Virus record (IMG/VR): IMGVR_UViG_3300035438_001811
Location: 5,633-69,632 of that record
Reading direction: 5' to 3' (one strand)
Length of the DNA: 64,000 nt
Origin: a virus
A model generated the notes under the pieces. That model was not told the origin of the DNA and did no database searches. It saw only the letters and a list, made by a program, of their open reading frames with translations. Position 1 is the stretch's first letter. The number at the start of each line of letters is the position of its first letter. Below are positions 4,194-29,172 of this stretch, in pieces. Both the position numbers and the translations under genes were made by a program.

Positions 4194-4397
4194 TTATCTG
4201 TTGGACTTTTTTGCTTCTAGCTCGTTTTGTTTAGCAATCAATGGAGTTTGAAACTGGCAAGATTTCATGAAATAAGTTTTATTCCCCATCTTGCCTCTTA
4301 GTTCCCATTCTTTTTTACTTTCGTTGTAGCAAACAATATAGTTGGCGGTTTCAGTTGACTCGGTAAGTTTTTTTAGTCTTTCTTGTGTAGTAGTCAT
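4194..4397 (-). CDS. Hypothetical cassette gene
   Basis: ORF directly downstream of promoter 4435-4464. Confidence 0.55.
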   Translation of the reverse strand: MTTTQERLKKLTESTETANYIVCYNESKKEWELRGKMGNKTYFMKSCQFQTPLIAKQNELEAKKSNR

Positions 4398-4434
4398 CGC
4401 CTTGCCGTTCCGTTGCTTTATTTGGTATATATGT

Positions 4435-4464
4435 AATATAGCACCACTACAAAACATCTGTCAA
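4435..4464 (-). promoter_or_regulatory. Sigma70-type promoter TTGACA-N18-TATATT
   Basis: Near-consensus boxes; spacer shares TAGTGRTG with the promoters at 5359 and 6388. Confidence 0.75.
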
Positions 4465-4469
4465 TACAT

Positions 4470-4751
4470 TCACTTAACTTTTTTCTTCCTACTCTTCTTG
4501 GGCTTATTCCTTTGCGTTTCGCGGTACTTTTCAGGATTATTCTCACGATACCGCTTGTCAATTTCGGCTCTAGTCATAGCGCGATCGCCAATCGCAGGAC
4601 GACCAACGGGGCGATCGCTGTCATTGCAGACGTAGTTGGGTTTATGCCGTCTGCACCTGTACTCACGTGCCCCTGACGGCAGGGTTTGGTTAAACGTGGT
4701 AAATGCTCCGCACGTTTCACAGATTGGATTTAGTGGATTAGGTACTGGCAT
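4470..4751 (-). CDS. InsA-like Zn-ribbon plus basic helix protein (paralog family A)
   Basis: CxxC...PSGAREYRC..DSDRP.GRP.IGD.AMT.AE...RYR; paralogs at 5421 and 30824. Confidence 0.7.
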   Translation of the reverse strand: MPVPNPLNPICETCGAFTTFNQTLPSGAREYRCRRHKPNYVCNDSDRPVGRPAIGDRAMTRAEIDKRYRENNPEKYRETQRNKPKKSRKKKVK

Positions 4752-23300: not shown

Positions 23301-25316
23301 TTAAGCAATGCTTTAATCGGTGCTGAGTCAGGGGCTTCTAAATTTGGTTCGCAATTTGGCTTTATTACTCAACAACAATTAGAGGCGCAAAAGACTGCGA
23401 TCGCTTATAGTAACGCGATTACAACACTTAGCTCTGGTTTTCAGCCAGCCGTCAATCTTATCGGTAAATATGGCACTGGCATTGACTTTGAACGTCGCGC
23501 AACTCAGTTGTCAATTAAAGAAAACAAGGAATACCAAAAACAACTAGCTGCTACCAGCGAACGATTAAAGCAAGAAGTATCCGATCTAGAGGCTATCGGT
23601 AAGCAGAAAGGAGTAGACCAAGCTGCTAACAAATTAGAGATTGATTCTCGGAAAACATTGATCGCCCAATCGGATCAAAAAATTGCTGTACTCAAAAAGG
23701 AAGAGGAAGCGGTTAAGGCTGTATCTGATGCTGAAAGGGATAGAGCTAAACAGCTACGAGAAAACCAAAACCAAGACGCAGAAAAATCAATCAAGCGCTC
23801 CTTTGACGATGGCAAAACCAAGCGCGATCGCGAAAATGCTGATGCTATCAAGGCTATCGAAGAGAAAAACGCACTCGCAAAAGGTGAGCTAGATCGCAGA
23901 CAAGCGCTAGAAACTGAAGCGCTGAAGGAAAAGCAAACCCTAGCTCTACAAGACAAGCAAAGGGCATTTGATGATACTCAGAACGCCAAAAAGCTACAAC
24001 TTGAAGATGCTCTTGATGCTAAGAAGCGGGCGAATGAGGAGAAACTCAACGCACTCAAACAGGCATTTGACGATAAGCAAAACGCGCTTAAAGAACAGAG
24101 AGCAGAGAAACAACGTAAGGACGATGAGGCATTTGCAGCGCAACGCGCTCAACGTGACAAACAAGCAAGTGAGGCTCTATCAGGTGCTAAGCAGCTAATC
24201 AGTAATGAGGGTGCGATCGCCACTGCTAAACCAGAAGATCGCGCCAAGATTGCGGCGCAAATCGAAGAAGAAGAACGCATTAGAGCACAAGCTGCTACTC
24301 AAGGCGTAGCTGGTGGTACTGAATCCCAAGAACAATTAGTAGCTAAGGCTAAGCAAATCGCCCAAATATCTGCGATTGCCAACGGTGAGGAACAGAAAAA
24401 AGTAGAGTTTGCTATTGCTGAACTTGATAAAGCGAACAAAGCTAAGCAAGCTGAAATTGATAAGGCTGAAGTTGCAAAGCGCACTGAAGAAAAACAAGCT
24501 AGTGACAAAGTTTTTGAAGCTGAACAAAATGCTGCTAAGCTTGCCTTTGATGCTGAGCAAAACACTGCCAAGCTTAACTTTGAAAACACTGTTCTCAAAC
24601 CTGAAAAGCAAAAGATCGAAGCTGAATTACAAGCGAGTAAATTAGCCTTTGAGCGTGGCGAACTTGCAGCGCTGAAAACACAACAAGCAGCCGATGAGAG
24701 GGCTTTAAAACTTCAGCAAACTAACGAGGACTTAGCAGCTAAGAAAGCTGCTGATGCTGAGTTAGAGACGATTAAGCTCGCTCAAAAAGAGAAAGAACTA
24801 GCACTTGATCGCGCCTTTGAGGATCAGAAAATTGAACGTGAGAGAGCATTTAAGGAATCTCAGAGAGCCTTAGATAAAGCATCTGCCATAGAGATTCAAC
24901 AAATCCTTGGTAAGTCTGCACAGCAAATTATCAGCGCTCTCACGTTAGCTAAAGGTGATTCTAAGTTTGGGGCTGTAGCTGGTATTGGCACTAGTCCTAA
25001 AGGAGATGCTAAAGCTCTAAATAATCAGGATGAAGTAAATAGGGCGGCGTTAGGAGCTAGCACTTTACCTAAGTTTGCGCGTGGCGTTACAAACTTTGTC
25101 GGGGGTGCGGCATTGGTTGGGGAAAAAGGTGCTGAGCTGGTGACATTGCCTAGAGGCTCTAACGTGCTACCAGCAAACCAAACCAAGAACGTGCTTAATA
25201 ATTCGGGCGGCAATAAAACCTATAACGTAAATGTAACCACTGGCAGTGGTAATGCTACAGAGATCGCTTTACAGATACAGAGAGAGATGGCACGATCGGC
25301 GGCGCTGAGTATGTAG
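20400..25316 (+). CDS. Tail tape measure protein (TP901-like core)
   Basis: ~1640 aa, Ala-rich; GKTTI..FA..LG.VAPIAA..GV...EL.AAI core; C-terminal FA.G.....G.ALVGE.G.ELV..P.G. Confidence 0.95.
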   Translation: MADENYAIRVSFDGIDKAIGDIKLLQSAIGNIKLPALNIDLSKFTGIEKTQIASVARVEAAQIASQAKVDAARLTGASKVSALEVGAIAKLESAQIAANAKVLAAKDGNATKVVNAEIAAQSRLEAARIASATKISNAEISTIAKLEAARIASATKVSAVEASTIAKLEAAQIASNAKIEALRLNLSAKAIANEVAAVTKIESIKIASDAKLAANKDSNAVKLRTAELSNESKIEAAKLATTAKITAADSAAIAKLEAAELASNAKIEAAKIASATKLEIAEKARLDRQRKESEALARTESARAAKAISDAEKSSTKPQSKSNSDAVIAQLEKQKAASTVRVSDGADKESARIAQETLRYKQQIAAIDAKIFNPADIANAKALASEINKLNLDKIKKGFDDASPVTFNQFIGATTEKARDLAEQLQNTSQTLERIGTTFNQVSSAANQAFLGFDTAKTKVATLSTQSNAFANTAIKLSKDLNNQVTSTEILTAQYEILSSGFINAADASEIARVSVLGAKAGFTDTATVADATTSILNAYGLAASDAANVVDQLAVVQDKGKTTIGLFAGQLGKVAPIAASAGVTLNELNAAIASVTIKGVKTETAVSGIRQAIVNLVKPTQSAQKVLEAIGITNAATTLKTEGLTGVLNRLKAAGLNTSSQLSKIFTDIDGLTAVVPLLNDDLKNFNANLVAVGNASGKAQQGFDIVAKSAEGQITAAINKINEALVNLGRGAQVAFAPLVAAVGAAVDVFNQLPAPLQTVIGGVIGLVGGVATLGAALTAIGAAAPAFIGGLKLFGIQAAASTVATTGLATANTVTATSFVGLGVATKAAAAGFVTFATTATTTVTGALVSVGALLAKGTILAGTFAVVAVKAIASIVVAMAPLVATLGVVYLAFESVRNTANLFGEINSNKAEDAFDKILNKSTAVDAKLKQATATSQSFTDKLAGGFDKVENPIQGAALAITNLSNALIGAESGASKFGSQFGFITQQQLEAQKTAIAYSNAITTLSSGFQPAVNLIGKYGTGIDFERRATQLSIKENKEYQKQLAATSERLKQEVSDLEAIGKQKGVDQAANKLEIDSRKTLIAQSDQKIAVLKKEEEAVKAVSDAERDRAKQLRENQNQDAEKSIKRSFDDGKTKRDRENADAIKAIEEKNALAKGELDRRQALETEALKEKQTLALQDKQRAFDDTQNAKKLQLEDALDAKKRANEEKLNALKQAFDDKQNALKEQRAEKQRKDDEAFAAQRAQRDKQASEALSGAKQLISNEGAIATAKPEDRAKIAAQIEEEERIRAQAATQGVAGGTESQEQLVAKAKQIAQISAIANGEEQKKVEFAIAELDKANKAKQAEIDKAEVAKRTEEKQASDKVFEAEQNAAKLAFDAEQNTAKLNFENTVLKPEKQKIEAELQASKLAFERGELAALKTQQAADERALKLQQTNEDLAAKKAADAELETIKLAQKEKELALDRAFEDQKIERERAFKESQRALDKASAIEIQQILGKSAQQIISALTLAKGDSKFGAVAGIGTSPKGDAKALNNQDEVNRAALGASTLPKFARGVTNFVGGAALVGEKGAELVTLPRGSNVLPANQTKNVLNNSGGNKTYNVNVTTGSGNATEIALQIQREMARSAALSM

Positions 25317-25345
25317 AATAACTAAAAGTTTGGATTAAGCGATCG

Positions 25346-25555
25346 TTATTCATTCTCTACCCAAACAATAATTTTAGATGGCTGAATCTTGTAGGCATCG
25401 CAGATTTTAGCGATTGAGCCTGTAGATGGTATATGCCAAGGGTTACGCGCTAACTCATAGCCAGTTGTACCGCTTATCCCCGTTTCTTTGACGAACTGAT
25501 AAGCGGTTATTTTTCTTTCTTCCAGAAATTCTTTAACTATATTTCTTAAAGCCAT
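25346..25555 (-). CDS. Cro/C1-type HTH regulator divergent from the type V effector
   Basis: ITAYQFVKETGISGTTGYEL...PS...IAKICDAY.IQP. Confidence 0.85.
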   Translation of the reverse strand: MALRNIVKEFLEERKITAYQFVKETGISGTTGYELARNPWHIPSTGSIAKICDAYKIQPSKIIVWVENE

Positions 25556-25583
25556 ATCACAATTAAAAGCTTGTATTAAAAGC

Positions 25584-25613
25584 TTGTCAATAGTATCAAT
25601 ACTATGATACTAT
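25584..25613 (+). promoter_or_regulatory. Effector promoter TTGTCA-N18-TACTAT with palindromic operator ATAGTAT-CA-ATACTAT
   Basis: Palindrome at 25590-25605 sits between -35 and -10; ATG is 6 nt after the -10 box, suggesting a leaderless mRNA. Confidence 0.7.
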
Positions 25614-25619
25614 CAGTAT

Positions 25620-27296
25620 ATGACTAGCAATGAAGCCACTACTAAAAAGATAGCTGAATTTAAGTTGTCTCCCACGATTGAGCAAAGCGCACAAATTGAT
25701 ATGTGGCTTACTCAACTTAAATGGGTATGGAATGTTGGTTTAAGTCTGCTTGAGGAAGATCAGCAACGTTATTGGAGGGCAAAACAAGAATGGGCAGAGT
25801 ATAGTCCTGAAGTATGGCAATGGCGAAAATCATGCAAAATCGACGGGATTGAGTATGTAAATCCTGATAATCAATACGGGCTTTGCTGTGCTTACTATCC
25901 TGATAAATGCGACATCCGCAAACATCGGGATATTGAAGAGCCATTTAAGCACGTTAAAAATTATCGCTTTATCGCTAATATGCGATGTCCTGATTTTTTG
26001 CACCCTATCGATAGCGAATCACGGCGATCTGTTGTGGATAACCTAATTGATGCATGGACTCAGTACCGCAAGGGGAAAAAAGGCAGACCACGTTACAAAA
26101 AGAAAGCTGATAAATTAGAAAGCTTTTCTAACGGCAATGGTCGGATATACGTTAATATTTCGCCCTTGGGTAATGACAATGCATTAATTGACTATCCAAA
26201 GCTAGGGTCAATCAAATGCAAGGGATTCTACCGTCGCTATGCTGGTAATCATACAATTGTACGCATCGTCAAAAAGGCTGACGGCTATTATGTGCAATTC
26301 ACTAGCACGGTAGACGTAAAGCCCGTTAAACCAGCAAAAAAGCAAGAAGTAGGCTTAGATTTTGGTGTAGTCGCTCCTATTGCTGATAGTGATGGAAGAT
26401 TGCATAAATCAAAACGCTATGCCAAATTGCAAGCTAAGAAATTAGCTCGTATTCAGCGCTCTATCTCACGCTCAAAAGATGGCTCTAACCGTCTAAAAGC
26501 TAAACGCTCTAAACTAGCTAAAGTGCATCTTAAAATCGCTAGGCAACGCGATCGCTTTATTCATAAGCTCACATCCAAGTATGTGAGTGAATATCAAAGC
26601 ATTGCCATTGAGGATACCAAGGTTAAAAATATGGTACGCGCACCAAAGGCGAAAGCTGGTGAAAATGGCGCGTTTCTACCTAATGGCGCGGCTGCAAAAG
26701 CTGGCTTAAATAAAGCGCTTCTTGATGTGGCGATCGGCAAAACAAAAACGATGCTAGAGACTAAATCTAAAGCATCAGAAAGAATATTTGTGAAAGTACC
26801 CGCACCGCACACTTCTCAAGGTTGCTCTCAGTGTGGCTACTATTCCGAAGAGTTTCGACCATCTCAAGCTGTTTTTAAATGCTTGAATTGTGGTCATGGT
26901 GACAACGCAGATAGCAACGCCTCAACCGTTATCCGTAATGTTGCTTTTAAAGGCTTGGTTTTGAAACCATACCCCGCTTCATCGGGGGAATTTAAGGGCG
27001 TGGATCATGCAACGCATGGGAAGAAGCGCCAACCGAGTAAGACTCGCAAGAGTAAGAAAGGATCGGTAGGAGAAACATCTACCGCAATCAACCGCGAAAG
27101 CGGGGCTGTAAATAGTCTAACCACTCGCGCAAACCCTGAAAACCAATCACCACAAGACTTTGAGCTATGGCAAGATTTAAAATCACTATCTAAAGCCAAC
27201 TCTAAATTGCAATCTCGTAAGCGATCCGCGCAAATCGATCCTAATATTGGCGCTCAGCTTGGTTTTTGGGATCTGTCTGGTGAAGCTTCTGGTTAA
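25620..27296 (+). CDS. tnpB: CRISPR-associated TnpB-like RuvC nuclease (type V-U / Cas12f-like effector)
   Basis: RuvC-I VGLDFG, RuvC-II IAIEDT, Zn ribbon CSQC..CLNC, RuvC-III NADSNA; directly adjacent CRISPR array; no tnpA. Confidence 0.9.
   Translation: MTSNEATTKKIAEFKLSPTIEQSAQIDMWLTQLKWVWNVGLSLLEEDQQRYWRAKQEWAEYSPEVWQWRKSCKIDGIEYVNPDNQYGLCCAYYPDKCDIRKHRDIEEPFKHVKNYRFIANMRCPDFLHPIDSESRRSVVDNLIDAWTQYRKGKKGRPRYKKKADKLESFSNGNGRIYVNISPLGNDNALIDYPKLGSIKCKGFYRRYAGNHTIVRIVKKADGYYVQFTSTVDVKPVKPAKKQEVGLDFGVVAPIADSDGRLHKSKRYAKLQAKKLARIQRSISRSKDGSNRLKAKRSKLAKVHLKIARQRDRFIHKLTSKYVSEYQSIAIEDTKVKNMVRAPKAKAGENGAFLPNGAAAKAGLNKALLDVAIGKTKTMLETKSKASERIFVKVPAPHTSQGCSQCGYYSEEFRPSQAVFKCLNCGHGDNADSNASTVIRNVAFKGLVLKPYPASSGEFKGVDHATHGKKRQPSKTRKSKKGSVGETSTAINRESGAVNSLTTRANPENQSPQDFELWQDLKSLSKANSKLQSRKRSAQIDPNIGAQLGFWDLSGEASG
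26968..27094 (+). ncRNA. Putative omegaRNA-derived tracrRNA overlapping the effector ORF (boundaries approximate)
   Basis: IS200/605-like omegaRNA motif GGAATTTAAGGGCGTGGA..GAAGCGCC; hairpins CATGC/GCATG and CGGTAG/CTACCG; anti-repeat CAATCAACCG at 27085-27094. Confidence 0.55.
27095..27278 (+). promoter_or_regulatory. Cyanobacterial-type CRISPR leader within the ORF tail
   Basis: AGCGGGG followed by two spaced CGCGCAAA motifs (CTCGCGCAAACCCTGAAAACC; GATCCGCGCAAATCGATCC) before repeat 1. Confidence 0.55.
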
Positions 27297-27750
27297 GCGA
27301 TCGGCTGATTGGAAGCGCAAAGCGCCCGCAAAGCTTTTTAAATGGCTAACCAGTGGGTGAAGCTTCTGGTTAAGCGATCGGCTGATTGGAAGGGATATCA
27401 GAGTCAGAGAGAGAGGCATTAGTCCAAGGTGAAGCTTCTGGTTAAGCGATCGGCTGATTGGAAGTTTGATGGTATCCCGATCCCTGATGTGAATAGCAGG
27501 TGAAGCTTCTGGTTAAGCGATCGGCTGATTGGAAGAGACCGACATCGACAATATACTATTGAGAGAATTAGGTGAAGCTTCTGGTTAAGCGATCGGCTGA
27601 TTGGAAGGCAGAAAGCATCATAGAGCCATTGCCAATCATTGAGGTGAAGCTTCTGGTTAAGCGATCGGCTGATTGGAAGTGAATATTCATAAAATCCATT
27701 GGAGCTTTTAGACGGTGAAACTAGTGGTTAAGCGATCGGCTGATTGGAAG
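27279..27750 (+). CRISPR. CRISPR array: 7 repeats of 37 bp (GGTGAAGCTTCTGGTTAAGCGATCGGCTGATTGGAAG) and 6 spacers of 34-40 bp
   Basis: Repeats start at 27279, 27356, 27428, 27499, 27571, 27643 and 27714; the last is degenerate (GGTGAAACTAGTGG...). Confidence 0.98.
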
Positions 27751-27836
27751 ACCAAATGCGGCGCAAAGACAAGATGATTGATGCATTGCTAGAGGCGATC
27801 GCAAAGATGAAGTGATATCTAAACGATTGATTAAAC

Positions 27837-27886
27837 GCAACAAAAAGACCATTTTCCTGTCATCGGGAAAATGGTCTTTTTGTTGC
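27837..27886. terminator. Long inverted-repeat terminator downstream of the array
   Basis: GCAACAAAAAGACCATTTTCC / GGAAAATGGTCTTTTTGTTGC. Confidence 0.9.
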
Positions 27887-28085
27887 AAGGGGTGACTCAC
27901 CGCTAAGGAATAGGGTTTAACCTTGCATGGCTATTTTAGCTTAATCCCCATTCAACCGATGTTCCAACTCAGGATAATATTCCCGAATCAAGCGCTTGGT
28001 TAATGCGCTCGTATCGATGGGGAACGGGTTGTGTACTTTGGGCTTTGGGCTTGCCCTTGGTAGCACCTTGGTGATATCGAATTGC

Positions 28086-28532
28086 TCATTTTCCATATGC
28101 TCTTCTCAATTCAGGCAACAAATTGATCGCAGTTTCGTAAGCCATTTGCACCTCACGAAATTTGTTAGGATCGCCGCCCGTATCAGGGTGATGTAATTTC
28201 GCCTGTTTGCGGTAAGCAGATTTAATTTCCCTCTCACTATTTGGGAACTTATCCAAGCCCAAAACAGCAAGAACAGAATCAATCCCTTTATCCCAGAAAG
28301 TCTCAACGCTACCCGTCATATTTTCAACTGGCAACGCCTCGACGAATTGCCAAATTGTGAATGTTGCACCATGCAAACCGTAGCCTCTGATTTTCCAAGC
28401 TCGGTAAGTCACATAGAACTTTGTACCACCCTCAGACGGGCATACGTTATCAATATCCATAGGCGAAACATCGAGCATTTTAGCGGCGCGGCGGCGCAAT
28501 TCGTCGAATGAGAATTTGATTTTGATAGACAT
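28086..28532 (-). CDS. J-domain (DnaJ-like) protein
   Basis: VLGL......EIKSAYRKQAKLHHPDTGGDPNKFREVQMAYE. Confidence 0.9.
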   Translation of the reverse strand: MSIKIKFSFDELRRRAAKMLDVSPMDIDNVCPSEGGTKFYVTYRAWKIRGYGLHGATFTIWQFVEALPVENMTGSVETFWDKGIDSVLAVLGLDKFPNSEREIKSAYRKQAKLHHPDTGGDPNKFREVQMAYETAINLLPELRRAYGK

Positions 28533-28536
28533 TGGT

Positions 28537-29172
28537 TTACCCGTTAATTTTGCAAGCTTTAGCTGAAGAAAACCAAACTGAATCAGAATATTTTGCAGCT
28601 TCTGAGACTGAAGCAATAAAAACAGATGCATGGTAATCACCATAGCCAAGATTTATTGTGGTTTCAAGATCGTCTGCTGTAACAATTTCAGCCCAATCAC
28701 AAAAATCCGCAAAGTGCCTGACATACCCGATAGTTGTTTCGATGTCAAATTGTGCATGGGACTTGTCCTCATGACTAAAGCTCAAATAGGTAAGCTCATC
28801 AACAGCACTAAGGAATGCGTCAACTACAGCGTCTTTAGCCAGTTTCAGGACTTGGTAATCATCCTTAGTTAGCTCTAATTGGCAGACAGGGATAGGGAAT
28901 CTATAGAGCTTGTCACCAATAATACAAACTTTAATTTCAAGCCCAGAGATGTTATTTGTGAGTTGATATTCCTGAACTTGATCCCGAAACTCATGATAAC
29001 AGCCAACCTCAAATAATCTTTGCGCTCCCAAAATAGAGCCTAGTGGTGTTTGCTTTGCGATTTCTTCGGCATTATCAGGCATAGGGAATGTGCGCTCACC
29101 ATTGACGCAAGCCATTCTCTCTATTTCTAGAATTTTAGTTAGCTCTTCAGTTGTATAAACTTTGTCAAACAT
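28537..29172 (-). CDS. Hypothetical protein
   Basis: 211-aa ORF in an operon with the J-domain gene. Confidence 0.6.
   Translation of the reverse strand: MFDKVYTTEELTKILEIERMACVNGERTFPMPDNAEEIAKQTPLGSILGAQRLFEVGCYHEFRDQVQEYQLTNNISGLEIKVCIIGDKLYRFPIPVCQLELTKDDYQVLKLAKDAVVDAFLSAVDELTYLSFSHEDKSHAQFDIETTIGYVRHFADFCDWAEIVTADDLETTINLGYGDYHASVFIASVSEAAKYSDSVWFSSAKACKING

Follow-up and report, generated by a model that had tools for sequence, protein, structure and literature searches.

The 64,000-nucleotide (nt) stretch of viral DNA analysed here, termed the window, is taken from a 69.6 kb IMG/VR virus record (IMGVR_UViG_3300035438_001811) and contains a gene for a TnpB-like nuclease, the effector, followed by an array of short palindromic repeats that are clustered and regularly interspaced (CRISPR). 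The locus is probably a TnpB-derived CRISPR system of a type V-U2-like kind, carried by a cyanophage, in which the 3′-terminal part of the effector gene also encodes the guide-RNA scaffold. The open reading frame (ORF) of the effector extends past RuvC-III Asp431 to residue 558, and the codons for residues about 451–495 coincide with hairpin-folding DNA at 26972–27103. Comparison among related loci shows that + strand RNA of this segment has a conserved structure of six hairpins (denoted H1 to H6), and that two of its parts, the loop of H1 and an anti-repeat following H5, contact and co-vary with the CRISPR repeat across lineages.

Conservation of the tail RNA

Relatives at the DNA level are few. 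An exact 20-nt motif search retrieved only two known IMG/VR contigs, a metagenome scan yielded one full-length relative (locus L006), and a first genome scan for DNA relatives found nothing. The close set used at this level consists of L003/L004, with 92% amino-acid identity, and L006, with 78%. Between the window and L006 there are 16 nucleotide differences over 26968–27106 (139 nt), 13 of them in stems; all 13 preserve pairing, being made up of six double changes and one A-U to G-U replacement. Across the three sequences of the close set, 98.9% of cells in the 31 pairs are paired and six pairs are changed on both sides, compared with 0–1 double changes in slid registers and a single shuffle in 500 that reaches the count. 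The stem changes are mostly nonsynonymous (P>S with G>E; G>D; H>R, A>S and H>S; V>G with T>P), with two that are synonymous. The amino acids co-vary as well: among 13 sequences, P..G is present in five and S/F..E in eight, and at a second pair of positions V..T is present in three, G..P in nine and R..L in one.

A covariance model (denoted R1) built from the three close sequences extends the structure to distant relatives. When run on 86 loci (516 kb), it returned 13 matches with E<1. Eleven of these were + strand matches located at the 3′ ends of effector ORFs of the V-U2-like kind. On 13 V-U2-like loci, it matched 12 at the same place and strand and missed L025. The resulting 12-locus alignment has 225 cells, 96.4% of them paired, and shows changes on both sides in 25 of the 31 pairs; it was fitted to the model and the count is biased accordingly, the bias being bounded by slid controls (36–49% paired, 2–8 doubly changed pairs). 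Hairpins equivalent to H5 are found in L019, L025, L080, L017 and Aphanizomenon phage vB_AphaS-CL131 (hereafter CL131, locus L002).

Chance, or co-variation imposed at the protein level within a low-complexity tail, could produce hairpins of this kind, and both the unexceptional folding energies and the presence of just three distinct close sequences at the DNA level are compatible with it. However, the shuffle and slide controls disagree with such an origin, as do the model matches, which occupy the homologous position at 12 of 13 loci, and the probability of such an origin is practically negligible. A second account treats the hairpins as relics of the right end of an IS200/IS605 insertion sequence, read as single-stranded DNA by TnpA and not as RNA. 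The ends of these elements bear DNA hairpins and the effector is itself TnpB-derived. Several conserved pairs are G-U, however (U27001-G27026, U27005-G27019 and cells in H1 and H3), and a structure at the DNA level is disfavoured because a conserved G-U would be C.A on the other strand. Co-variation of both contacts with CRISPR repeats also speaks against this account, as does the lack of a transposase among the seven neighbouring ORFs covered by a scan that did not extend to the whole window, and we regard it as extremely unlikely.

Two contacts with the CRISPR repeat

The first contact is formed by the anti-repeat, the DNA of which (CAATCAACCG) is complementary at nine of ten positions to repeat nt 24–33 (CGGCTGATTG). 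It stands directly after H5 in the same register, and the repeat segment that it targets ends 4 nt before the spacer, in every lineage that could be read. Matches at individual loci, read by eye from the sequences, are given in Table 1. In the seven other loci compared, the anti-repeat varies together with the repeat of the respective lineage. A MAFFT alignment covering six loci, one of them (L025) with a misaligned row, gives 81.3% pairing over 48 cells and four doubly changed pairs, against 8–40% pairing in slid controls. A second CCAATCA at 27139–27145 was considered as the main anti-repeat and rejected, as the segment is variable or deleted in the relatives P0003, P0004 and P0010.

The second contact is a pseudoknot between the H1 loop and the end of the repeat. 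The loop bases CUUC (26977–26980) are complementary to repeat nt 34–37, GAAG, which adjoin the spacer. In a plain, unfitted MAFFT alignment of eight loci, H1 and this contact together are paired in 72 of 72 cells, and slid controls reach 37–62%. The contact changes identity between lineages while remaining paired: one position holds CG in three loci, GC in three and UA in two, and another holds CG in seven and GC in one. Jointly, the two contacts account for the terminal 14 nt of the repeat, with no base left between them.

An earlier, sequence-only reading of the window had placed a tracrRNA (trans-activating CRISPR RNA) at 26968–27094, and the sequence features that it named are all present in the window at or near the coordinates it gave. 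Its anti-repeat at 27085–27094, with nine of ten positions matching repeat nt 24–33, is borne out by the co-variation in relatives. The GCTTC at 26976–26980 that it thought could pair with the terminal GAAG of the repeat proves to lie in the loop of the CCCCG/CGGGG hairpin and to co-vary across eight loci. Structured RNA is indeed found over the proposed extent, although the core spans 26972–27103 and so ends slightly further downstream.

In an alternative arrangement, the CRISPR RNA (crRNA) would act alone, with a hairpin at the 3′ end of the repeat as in Cas12a, Cas12j or Cas12m, and the tail RNA would serve mRNA stability or autoregulation through binding of the effector to its own message. 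The window repeat does fold on itself (nt 8–17 with 28–37, −10 kcal/mol, z −1.67), the L019 repeat has a fold z of −2.42, and V-U2 is given as lacking a tracrRNA in a table of PMC11641405 and in the available portion of PMC6293099. Yet the self-fold is not a family-wide property: z is +0.29 in CL131, −0.26 in L025 and +1.12 in L080, and three of the pairs in the window repeat are lost in L006. A crRNA acting alone would also leave unexplained why the H1 loop and the bases after H5 track the last 14 nt of the repeat across lineages, and this arrangement is decidedly improbable.

The Microcystis-type V-U2 loci (L017, 3931–4380; L015, L022, L018 and L021) adjoin long arrays with the repeat GTTCCAATTAATCTTAAACCCTATTAGGGATTGAAAC, which we take to resemble type I-D/III repeats. 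The first one or two repeats of these arrays are variant, and extra copies of CGCAAUCC lie nearer the array. The anti-repeat CAAUCCCU and the H1 loop GUUU of their tail RNA match the 3′ end of GTTCCAATTAATCTTAAACCCTATTAGGGATTGAAAC. Effectors of this group may have tuned their tail RNA to the 3′ ends of I-D/III-like repeats, and may thereby read a pre-existing array of host type. The contigs of L018 and L021, which have V-U2 loci and arrays of cyanobacterial type, were binned to a Crocinitomicaceae metagenome-assembled genome; this placement may reflect mis-binning or a mobile element.

Table 1. Features of the effector-array locus and of its counterparts in relatives. Positions are those of the window unless a locus is named; R:AR, repeat:anti-repeat.
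Feature	Position	Strand	Sequence	Basis or remark
Promoter-like site	25584–25613	+	TTGTCA, 16/18 nt spacer, TACTAT	Consensus scan; weak
Effector ORF, 558 aa, TnpB-like, type V-U2 (C2c8)-related	25620–27296	+		Pfam, NCBIfam, structure
H1, loop contact a putative equivalent of R:AR1	26972–26987	+	CCCCG-CUUCAU-CGGGG	Fold; compensation in relatives
Conserved single-stranded linker	Precedes H2 outer stem	+	GGAAUUUAAG	Sequence comparison
H2 outer stem	26997–27001 / 27026–27030	+	GGCGU/GCGCC	Compensatory changes
H3, enclosed by H2	27005–27019	+	UCAUGC-AAC-GCAUGG	Compensatory changes
H4, GNRA loop	27042–27053	+	ACUC-GCAA-GAGU	Invariant in close, compensated in distant relatives
H5	27064–27084	+	CGGUAGG-AGAAACA-UCUACCG	U-A to G-C swap in L003, L004, L006
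Anti-repeat, putative equivalent of stem 4 / R:AR2	27085–27094	+	CAAUCAACCG	Pairs with repeat nt 24–33
H6, GNRA loop	27092–27103	+	CCGC-GAAA-GCGG	Shares last 3 nt of anti-repeat
Variable in-frame mid-tail, including ELWQDLK and RKRSAQ segments	27104–27254	+		Alignment of relatives
Codons for C-terminal motif QLGFWDL (family QLxLW[DN])	27255–27275	+		Alignment of relatives
CRISPR array, seven 37-nt repeats	27279–27750	+	GGTGAAGCTTCTGGTTAAGCGATCGGCTGATTGGAAG	Last repeat degenerate
Terminator-like hairpin and T run, 3′ of array	27843–27885	+		By sequence
Anti-repeat : repeat, window			CAAUCAACCG : CGGCUGAUUG	9/10
Anti-repeat : repeat, L006			CAAUCAA : UUGAUUG	7 bp
Anti-repeat : repeat, L019 (Dolichospermum circinale)			CAAUUAACC : GGUUAAUUG	9/9
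Anti-repeat, CL131, 18-nt stretch	4480–4497			16/18
Anti-repeat : repeat, L025 (Chroococcus)			CAACAUUA : UGAUGUUG	8 bp, one G-U
Anti-repeat : repeat, L080 (Xenococcaceae)			CAAUCCC : GGGAUUG	7 bp
Anti-repeat : repeat, L017 (Microcystis)			CAAUCCCU : AGGGAUUG	8 bp
H1 loop / repeat end, window, L003, L006			CUUC/GAAG	
H1 loop / repeat end, L019, CL131, L025			CUUG/CAAG	
H1 loop / repeat end, L080			CUUU/AAAG	
H1 loop / repeat end, L017			GUUU/AAAC	

The array and possible RNA from the tail

The seven repeats start at 27279, 27356, 27428, 27499, 27571, 27643 and 27714, at a spacing of 71–77 nt, and the stop codon of the effector (TAA, 27294–27296) falls within the first of them. Between the anti-repeat and repeat 1 lie about 200 nt of variable length. 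The corresponding arrays of L003 (4729–5035) and L004 (3690–3996) have only five repeats, several of them mutated, and one spacing of 49 nt instead of about 72; the array in these relatives appears to be decaying.

Spacer 4 (27536–27570) matches, at 33 of 35 positions, a contig of RNA run X23 (749 nt, depth 13.6) with unrelated flanks, which is likely a protospacer in a co-occurring element. The T-rich 5′ flank of this protospacer, on the spacer-sense strand, suggests a candidate protospacer-adjacent motif (PAM) or transposon-associated motif. Viral contigs contained no exact match to spacer 4, and a blastn search of the array against phage records gave no match. Upstream of the array, the 11-nt sequence GATCCGCGCAA is identical at window 27228–27238, L006 2302–2312 and L019 4190–4200, in loci with a protein identity of only about 35%. 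This sequence sits 40–55 nt upstream of the first repeat, with GGCGCAA retained in L025 and L017, and could be a leader, promoter or processing element.

RNA data cover the tail-coding segment in two metatranscriptome runs. In run X20, a 316-nt contig lies over 26989–27284 at a depth of 10.7, with one other piece of the gene at a depth of 3.1; in run X23, from a different study, a 327-nt contig lies over 26973–27230 at a depth of 8.9, with nothing else on the gene. These contigs, which reveal neither the ends nor the strand of an RNA and come from libraries that can contain DNA, hint weakly at a stable tail RNA. They also suggest that the transcript extends to about 27230–27284.

The same contigs, reaching up to repeat 1, would fit an omegaRNA that was never split: one RNA from about 26972 through repeat 1 and spacer 1 would act in cis as the sole guide, and the later repeat-spacer units would be passengers. 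The ORF ends only a few bases before the first guide, as in TnpB according to the available text of PMC10097598. Against an unsplit guide stand the arrays that relatives maintain, with 4–14 identical repeats and differing spacers, and the degenerate last repeat of the window, which resembles an array's old end. Spacer 1 differs between relatives that are 92% identical, the gap from the anti-repeat to repeat 1 varies in length, and the match of spacer 4 indicates that later spacers have targets. An unsplit guide is thus very improbable.

Observations that weigh against a split scaffold

Besides the fitting bias of the 12-locus alignment and the ambiguity of the RNA contigs, several observations weigh against a tail-encoded scaffold that pairs with the repeat. 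The anti-repeat duplex of the window is short, consisting of 6 base pairs (bp), an A.C mismatch and 3 bp, and a 10-mer with at most one mismatch occurs five times outside the array, compared with 3.65 in shuffles of the whole window including the array. The repeat self-hairpin engages the same 3′ bases as the contacts, and the cis fold shows repeat 1 self-paired, not joined to the anti-repeat. Minimum free energy (MFE) is not better than that of shuffles (z −1.33 for 26960–27100 and −0.58 for 26960–27315), in a calculation that cannot represent the pseudoknot. Two of the 13 covariance matches, L009 and L045, are not at an effector 3′ end and are probably false. Finally, promoter and terminator prediction around the tail RNA yielded none.

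Other searches of the window were likewise uninformative about the tail. A co-folding scan of the repeat against its neighbourhood is dominated by the array itself, and an Rfam scan of 24000–29000 with E up to 10 gave nothing within 26900–27300. In the cis fold, GCUUCAUC pairs with GGUGAAGC at the repeat's 5′ end; this pairing was rejected, as the repeat of L003/L004 carries a G>A change and its partner is unchanged. The tail RNA is not above chance from the window alone; it is evident by comparison with relatives.

The effector core

The effector matches the Pfam families OrfB_IS605 and Cas12f1-like_TNB. Its best NCBIfam family is NF038192 (V_cas_c2c8), with 303.4 bits (E 3.2e-90) over residues 10–408, and because this score lies below the curated cut-off of 350, the effector is called V-U2-like, a member of a sister clade, and not a C2c8 equivalog. 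The CL131 effector is 36% identical to it. The RuvC residues are D247, E331 and D431 (the RuvC-III Asp431 codon is GAT, 26910–26912), and a zinc finger of the CxxC...CxxC type is formed by C402, C405, C421 and C424. In 43 sequences, D247, E331, D431, C402, C405 and C424 are invariant and C421 is nearly so.

Among solved structures, the nearest in sequence are that of an AI-designed nuclease guided by RNA (9yyg) and that of ISDra2 TnpB. Foldseek comparison of the core modelled with AlphaFold2 (AF2) gives the TnpB structures 8iaz and 8h1j as top matches, with a TM-score on the target of 0.75–0.76; ISFba1 and ISDra2 TnpB are closest, followed by Cas12p, LaTranC and Cas12f. In this model, made from a 43-sequence alignment, pLDDT, the score predicted for the local distance difference test, is 85–95 through residue 455 and below 50 for residues 456–558. 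Confidence falls where the codons of H1 begin, and the effector tail is predicted to be disordered. A model built from only 13 close sequences, with a mean pLDDT of 42, was of low quality along its whole length and gave way to the 43-sequence model.

The tail peptide

The reading frame of the tail is kept open in all close relatives (69–93% identity), several insertions and deletions notwithstanding; one of these, an in-frame insertion of 69 nt after 27116, is shared by L003/L004 and RNA run X23. A C-terminal QLxLW/F[DN] is present in 13 of 13 close members and 10 of 15 distant members of the family. It closes the proteins of L019 (4216–4233) and L025 (4209–4232) as well, and was lacking in all eight typical TnpBs inspected (371–484 aa). 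The Leu codons of the motif vary by lineage (CTT, CTA, TTG), which indicates selection at the level of the peptide.

In CL131 (4390–4642), the effector ORF is closed by a TGA at the position of a CGA in L019. Beyond it the homologous tail carries on, first in this frame and later in a different one, up to a ...TQLTLW* end. The TGA and the later frameshift break the tail peptide of this phage, whereas the hairpins and the 18-nt anti-repeat persist; the peptide therefore seems expendable while the DNA is retained.

The sequence-only reading had described the effector as continuing after RuvC-III into a basic, low-complexity tail. The continuation to residue 558 holds, but the conserved frame and QLxLW[DN] end go beyond simple read-through. 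Its central proposal, that an omegaRNA has split into tracrRNA and crRNA while remaining inside the coding frame, gains from the overprinted structure and from both contacts as seen by comparison; that the tail RNA is discrete, required and trans-acting is still something we infer. On comparative grounds, this interpretation is largely supported.

The bacterial sliding clamp is bound through the motif QL[SD]LF, which QLxLW[DN] resembles. The tail could be dual-coding under two simultaneous selections, specifying both the tracrRNA and a flexible tether, conserved only in its C-terminal QLxLW[DN], that would dock the nuclease onto the replication clamp of the host, an idea that we consider doubtful. 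A complex prediction of the last 40 residues of the L019 tail with DnaN of the same genome scored 0.15, which weighs neither way.

Phage context

Upstream of the effector lie a 1641-aa ORF resembling a minor-tail or tape-measure protein and a divergent gene of the Cro/C1 helix-turn-helix (HTH) type; downstream of the array are DnaJ-domain and KilA-N/ANT proteins. The seven neighbouring ORFs that were scanned encode phage or HTH proteins. The HTH gene (25346–25555, − strand) is separated from the effector by 64 nt. This gap (within 25346–25619) contains the palindrome ATAGTATCAATACTAT and two copies of the direct repeat AAAAGCTTGT, which may constitute a candidate operator for the CRISPR operon. 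Promoter-like sites in the consensus scan are not above shuffles in number, and the terminator-like hairpin has only sub-threshold Rfam matches. In each of 19 lake-water DNA runs, at least half of the words sampled from the stretch are present.

Relation to known systems

A tail-encoded tracrRNA, and the overlap of omegaRNA with a C-terminal domain (CTD), are not unprecedented in the portions of the literature available on Cas12n, TnpB and TranC. In Cas12n (V-U4), the tracrRNA lies within an unstructured, dispensable C-terminal tail of the effector, according to the accessible text of 10.64898/2026.03.27.714800 and PMC11641405. As described there, the likeness includes a miniature TnpB-like effector, structure confidence that falls right after RuvC-III, a tracrRNA in the tail-coding DNA and a CRISPR array directly after it. 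Unlike Cas12n (C2c9), the window effector best matches C2c8, there being no C2c9 model among the nine NCBIfam families listed. Chain 9j09, identified as Cas12n in the part of 10.64898/2026.03.27.714800 available, aligns over residues 264–438 only. The window also has about 200 nt of extra in-frame tail before the array, and the conserved QLxLW[DN] end, compared with what those sources describe.

The closest fold is that of ISDra2 TnpB, for which the available sections of PMC10097598 describe a disordered, dispensable CTD that overlaps the omegaRNA. In that RNA, a pseudoknot joins the loop of stem 1 to nt −5 to −3 beside the guide, and stem 4 joins tracrRNA-like and crRNA-like strands through a UUUA loop; the two correspond to R:AR1 and R:AR2 of Cas12f (PMC10097598). 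The window scaffold likewise overlaps the 3′ end of the ORF and the predicted disordered tail, and has the same topology of pseudoknot and guide-proximal stem, opened where the UUUA loop would be. In contrast to TnpB, the crRNA-like part is detached, multiplied into seven repeats with different spacers and placed about 200 nt away; the effector has a larger core (455 aa) and a 100-aa tail; and the RNA matches no Rfam family.

TranC is a CRISPR-associated TnpB-like nuclease guided by an omegaRNA whose function is divided between tracrRNA and crRNA, as far as the accessible parts of PMC13565253 and 10.64898/2026.03.27.714800 describe it. LaTranC is a distant sequence match to the window effector (E 4e-6) and ranks sixth by Foldseek. 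Phage-borne V-U2 is known from CL131, for which the available text of PMC6293099 reports that no tracrRNA was found. The window shares with cyanobacterial and CL131 V-U2 its best family match and the layout of gene followed by array. It departs from that published description in that a tail-embedded tracrRNA is supported here and is visible in CL131 too. In the accessible portion of PMC11641405, V-U2 is the sole group from V-U1 to V-U5 without a Cas12 name, size or PAM. Our literature search found no report of a V-U2 tracrRNA, only statements that it is absent or that the system is uncharacterised; the TranC work may hold an earlier description.

Proposed mechanism and significance

In the proposed mechanism, a single operon transcript would begin at the promoter-like site, take in the ORF and array and end at the terminator-like hairpin, and would yield a stable tail RNA acting as tracrRNA. 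Each crRNA, a repeat-spacer unit, would use the terminal 14 nt of its repeat to dock on the tail RNA. Docking would rebuild, from two molecules, the guide-pseudoknot-stem architecture of TnpB omegaRNA. The TnpB-like core (residues 1–455) would bind this scaffold and cut DNA matching the approximately 35-nt spacer beside a 5′ motif. The disordered tail peptide (residues 456–558) would stay in frame because QLxLW[DN] is translated, making the segment dual-coding.

If so, a guide RNA for this compact nuclease, with its core of about 455 aa, could be designed from a tracr core of about 130 nt, a 14-nt repeat handle and two named contacts. The locus would be an example of selection on RNA structure overriding amino-acid conservation. 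It would also represent the split of an omegaRNA into tracrRNA and crRNA kept in living lineages, inside a coding frame and on a phage, and the series of related loci would be useful for studying how TnpB guides turned into CRISPR guides.

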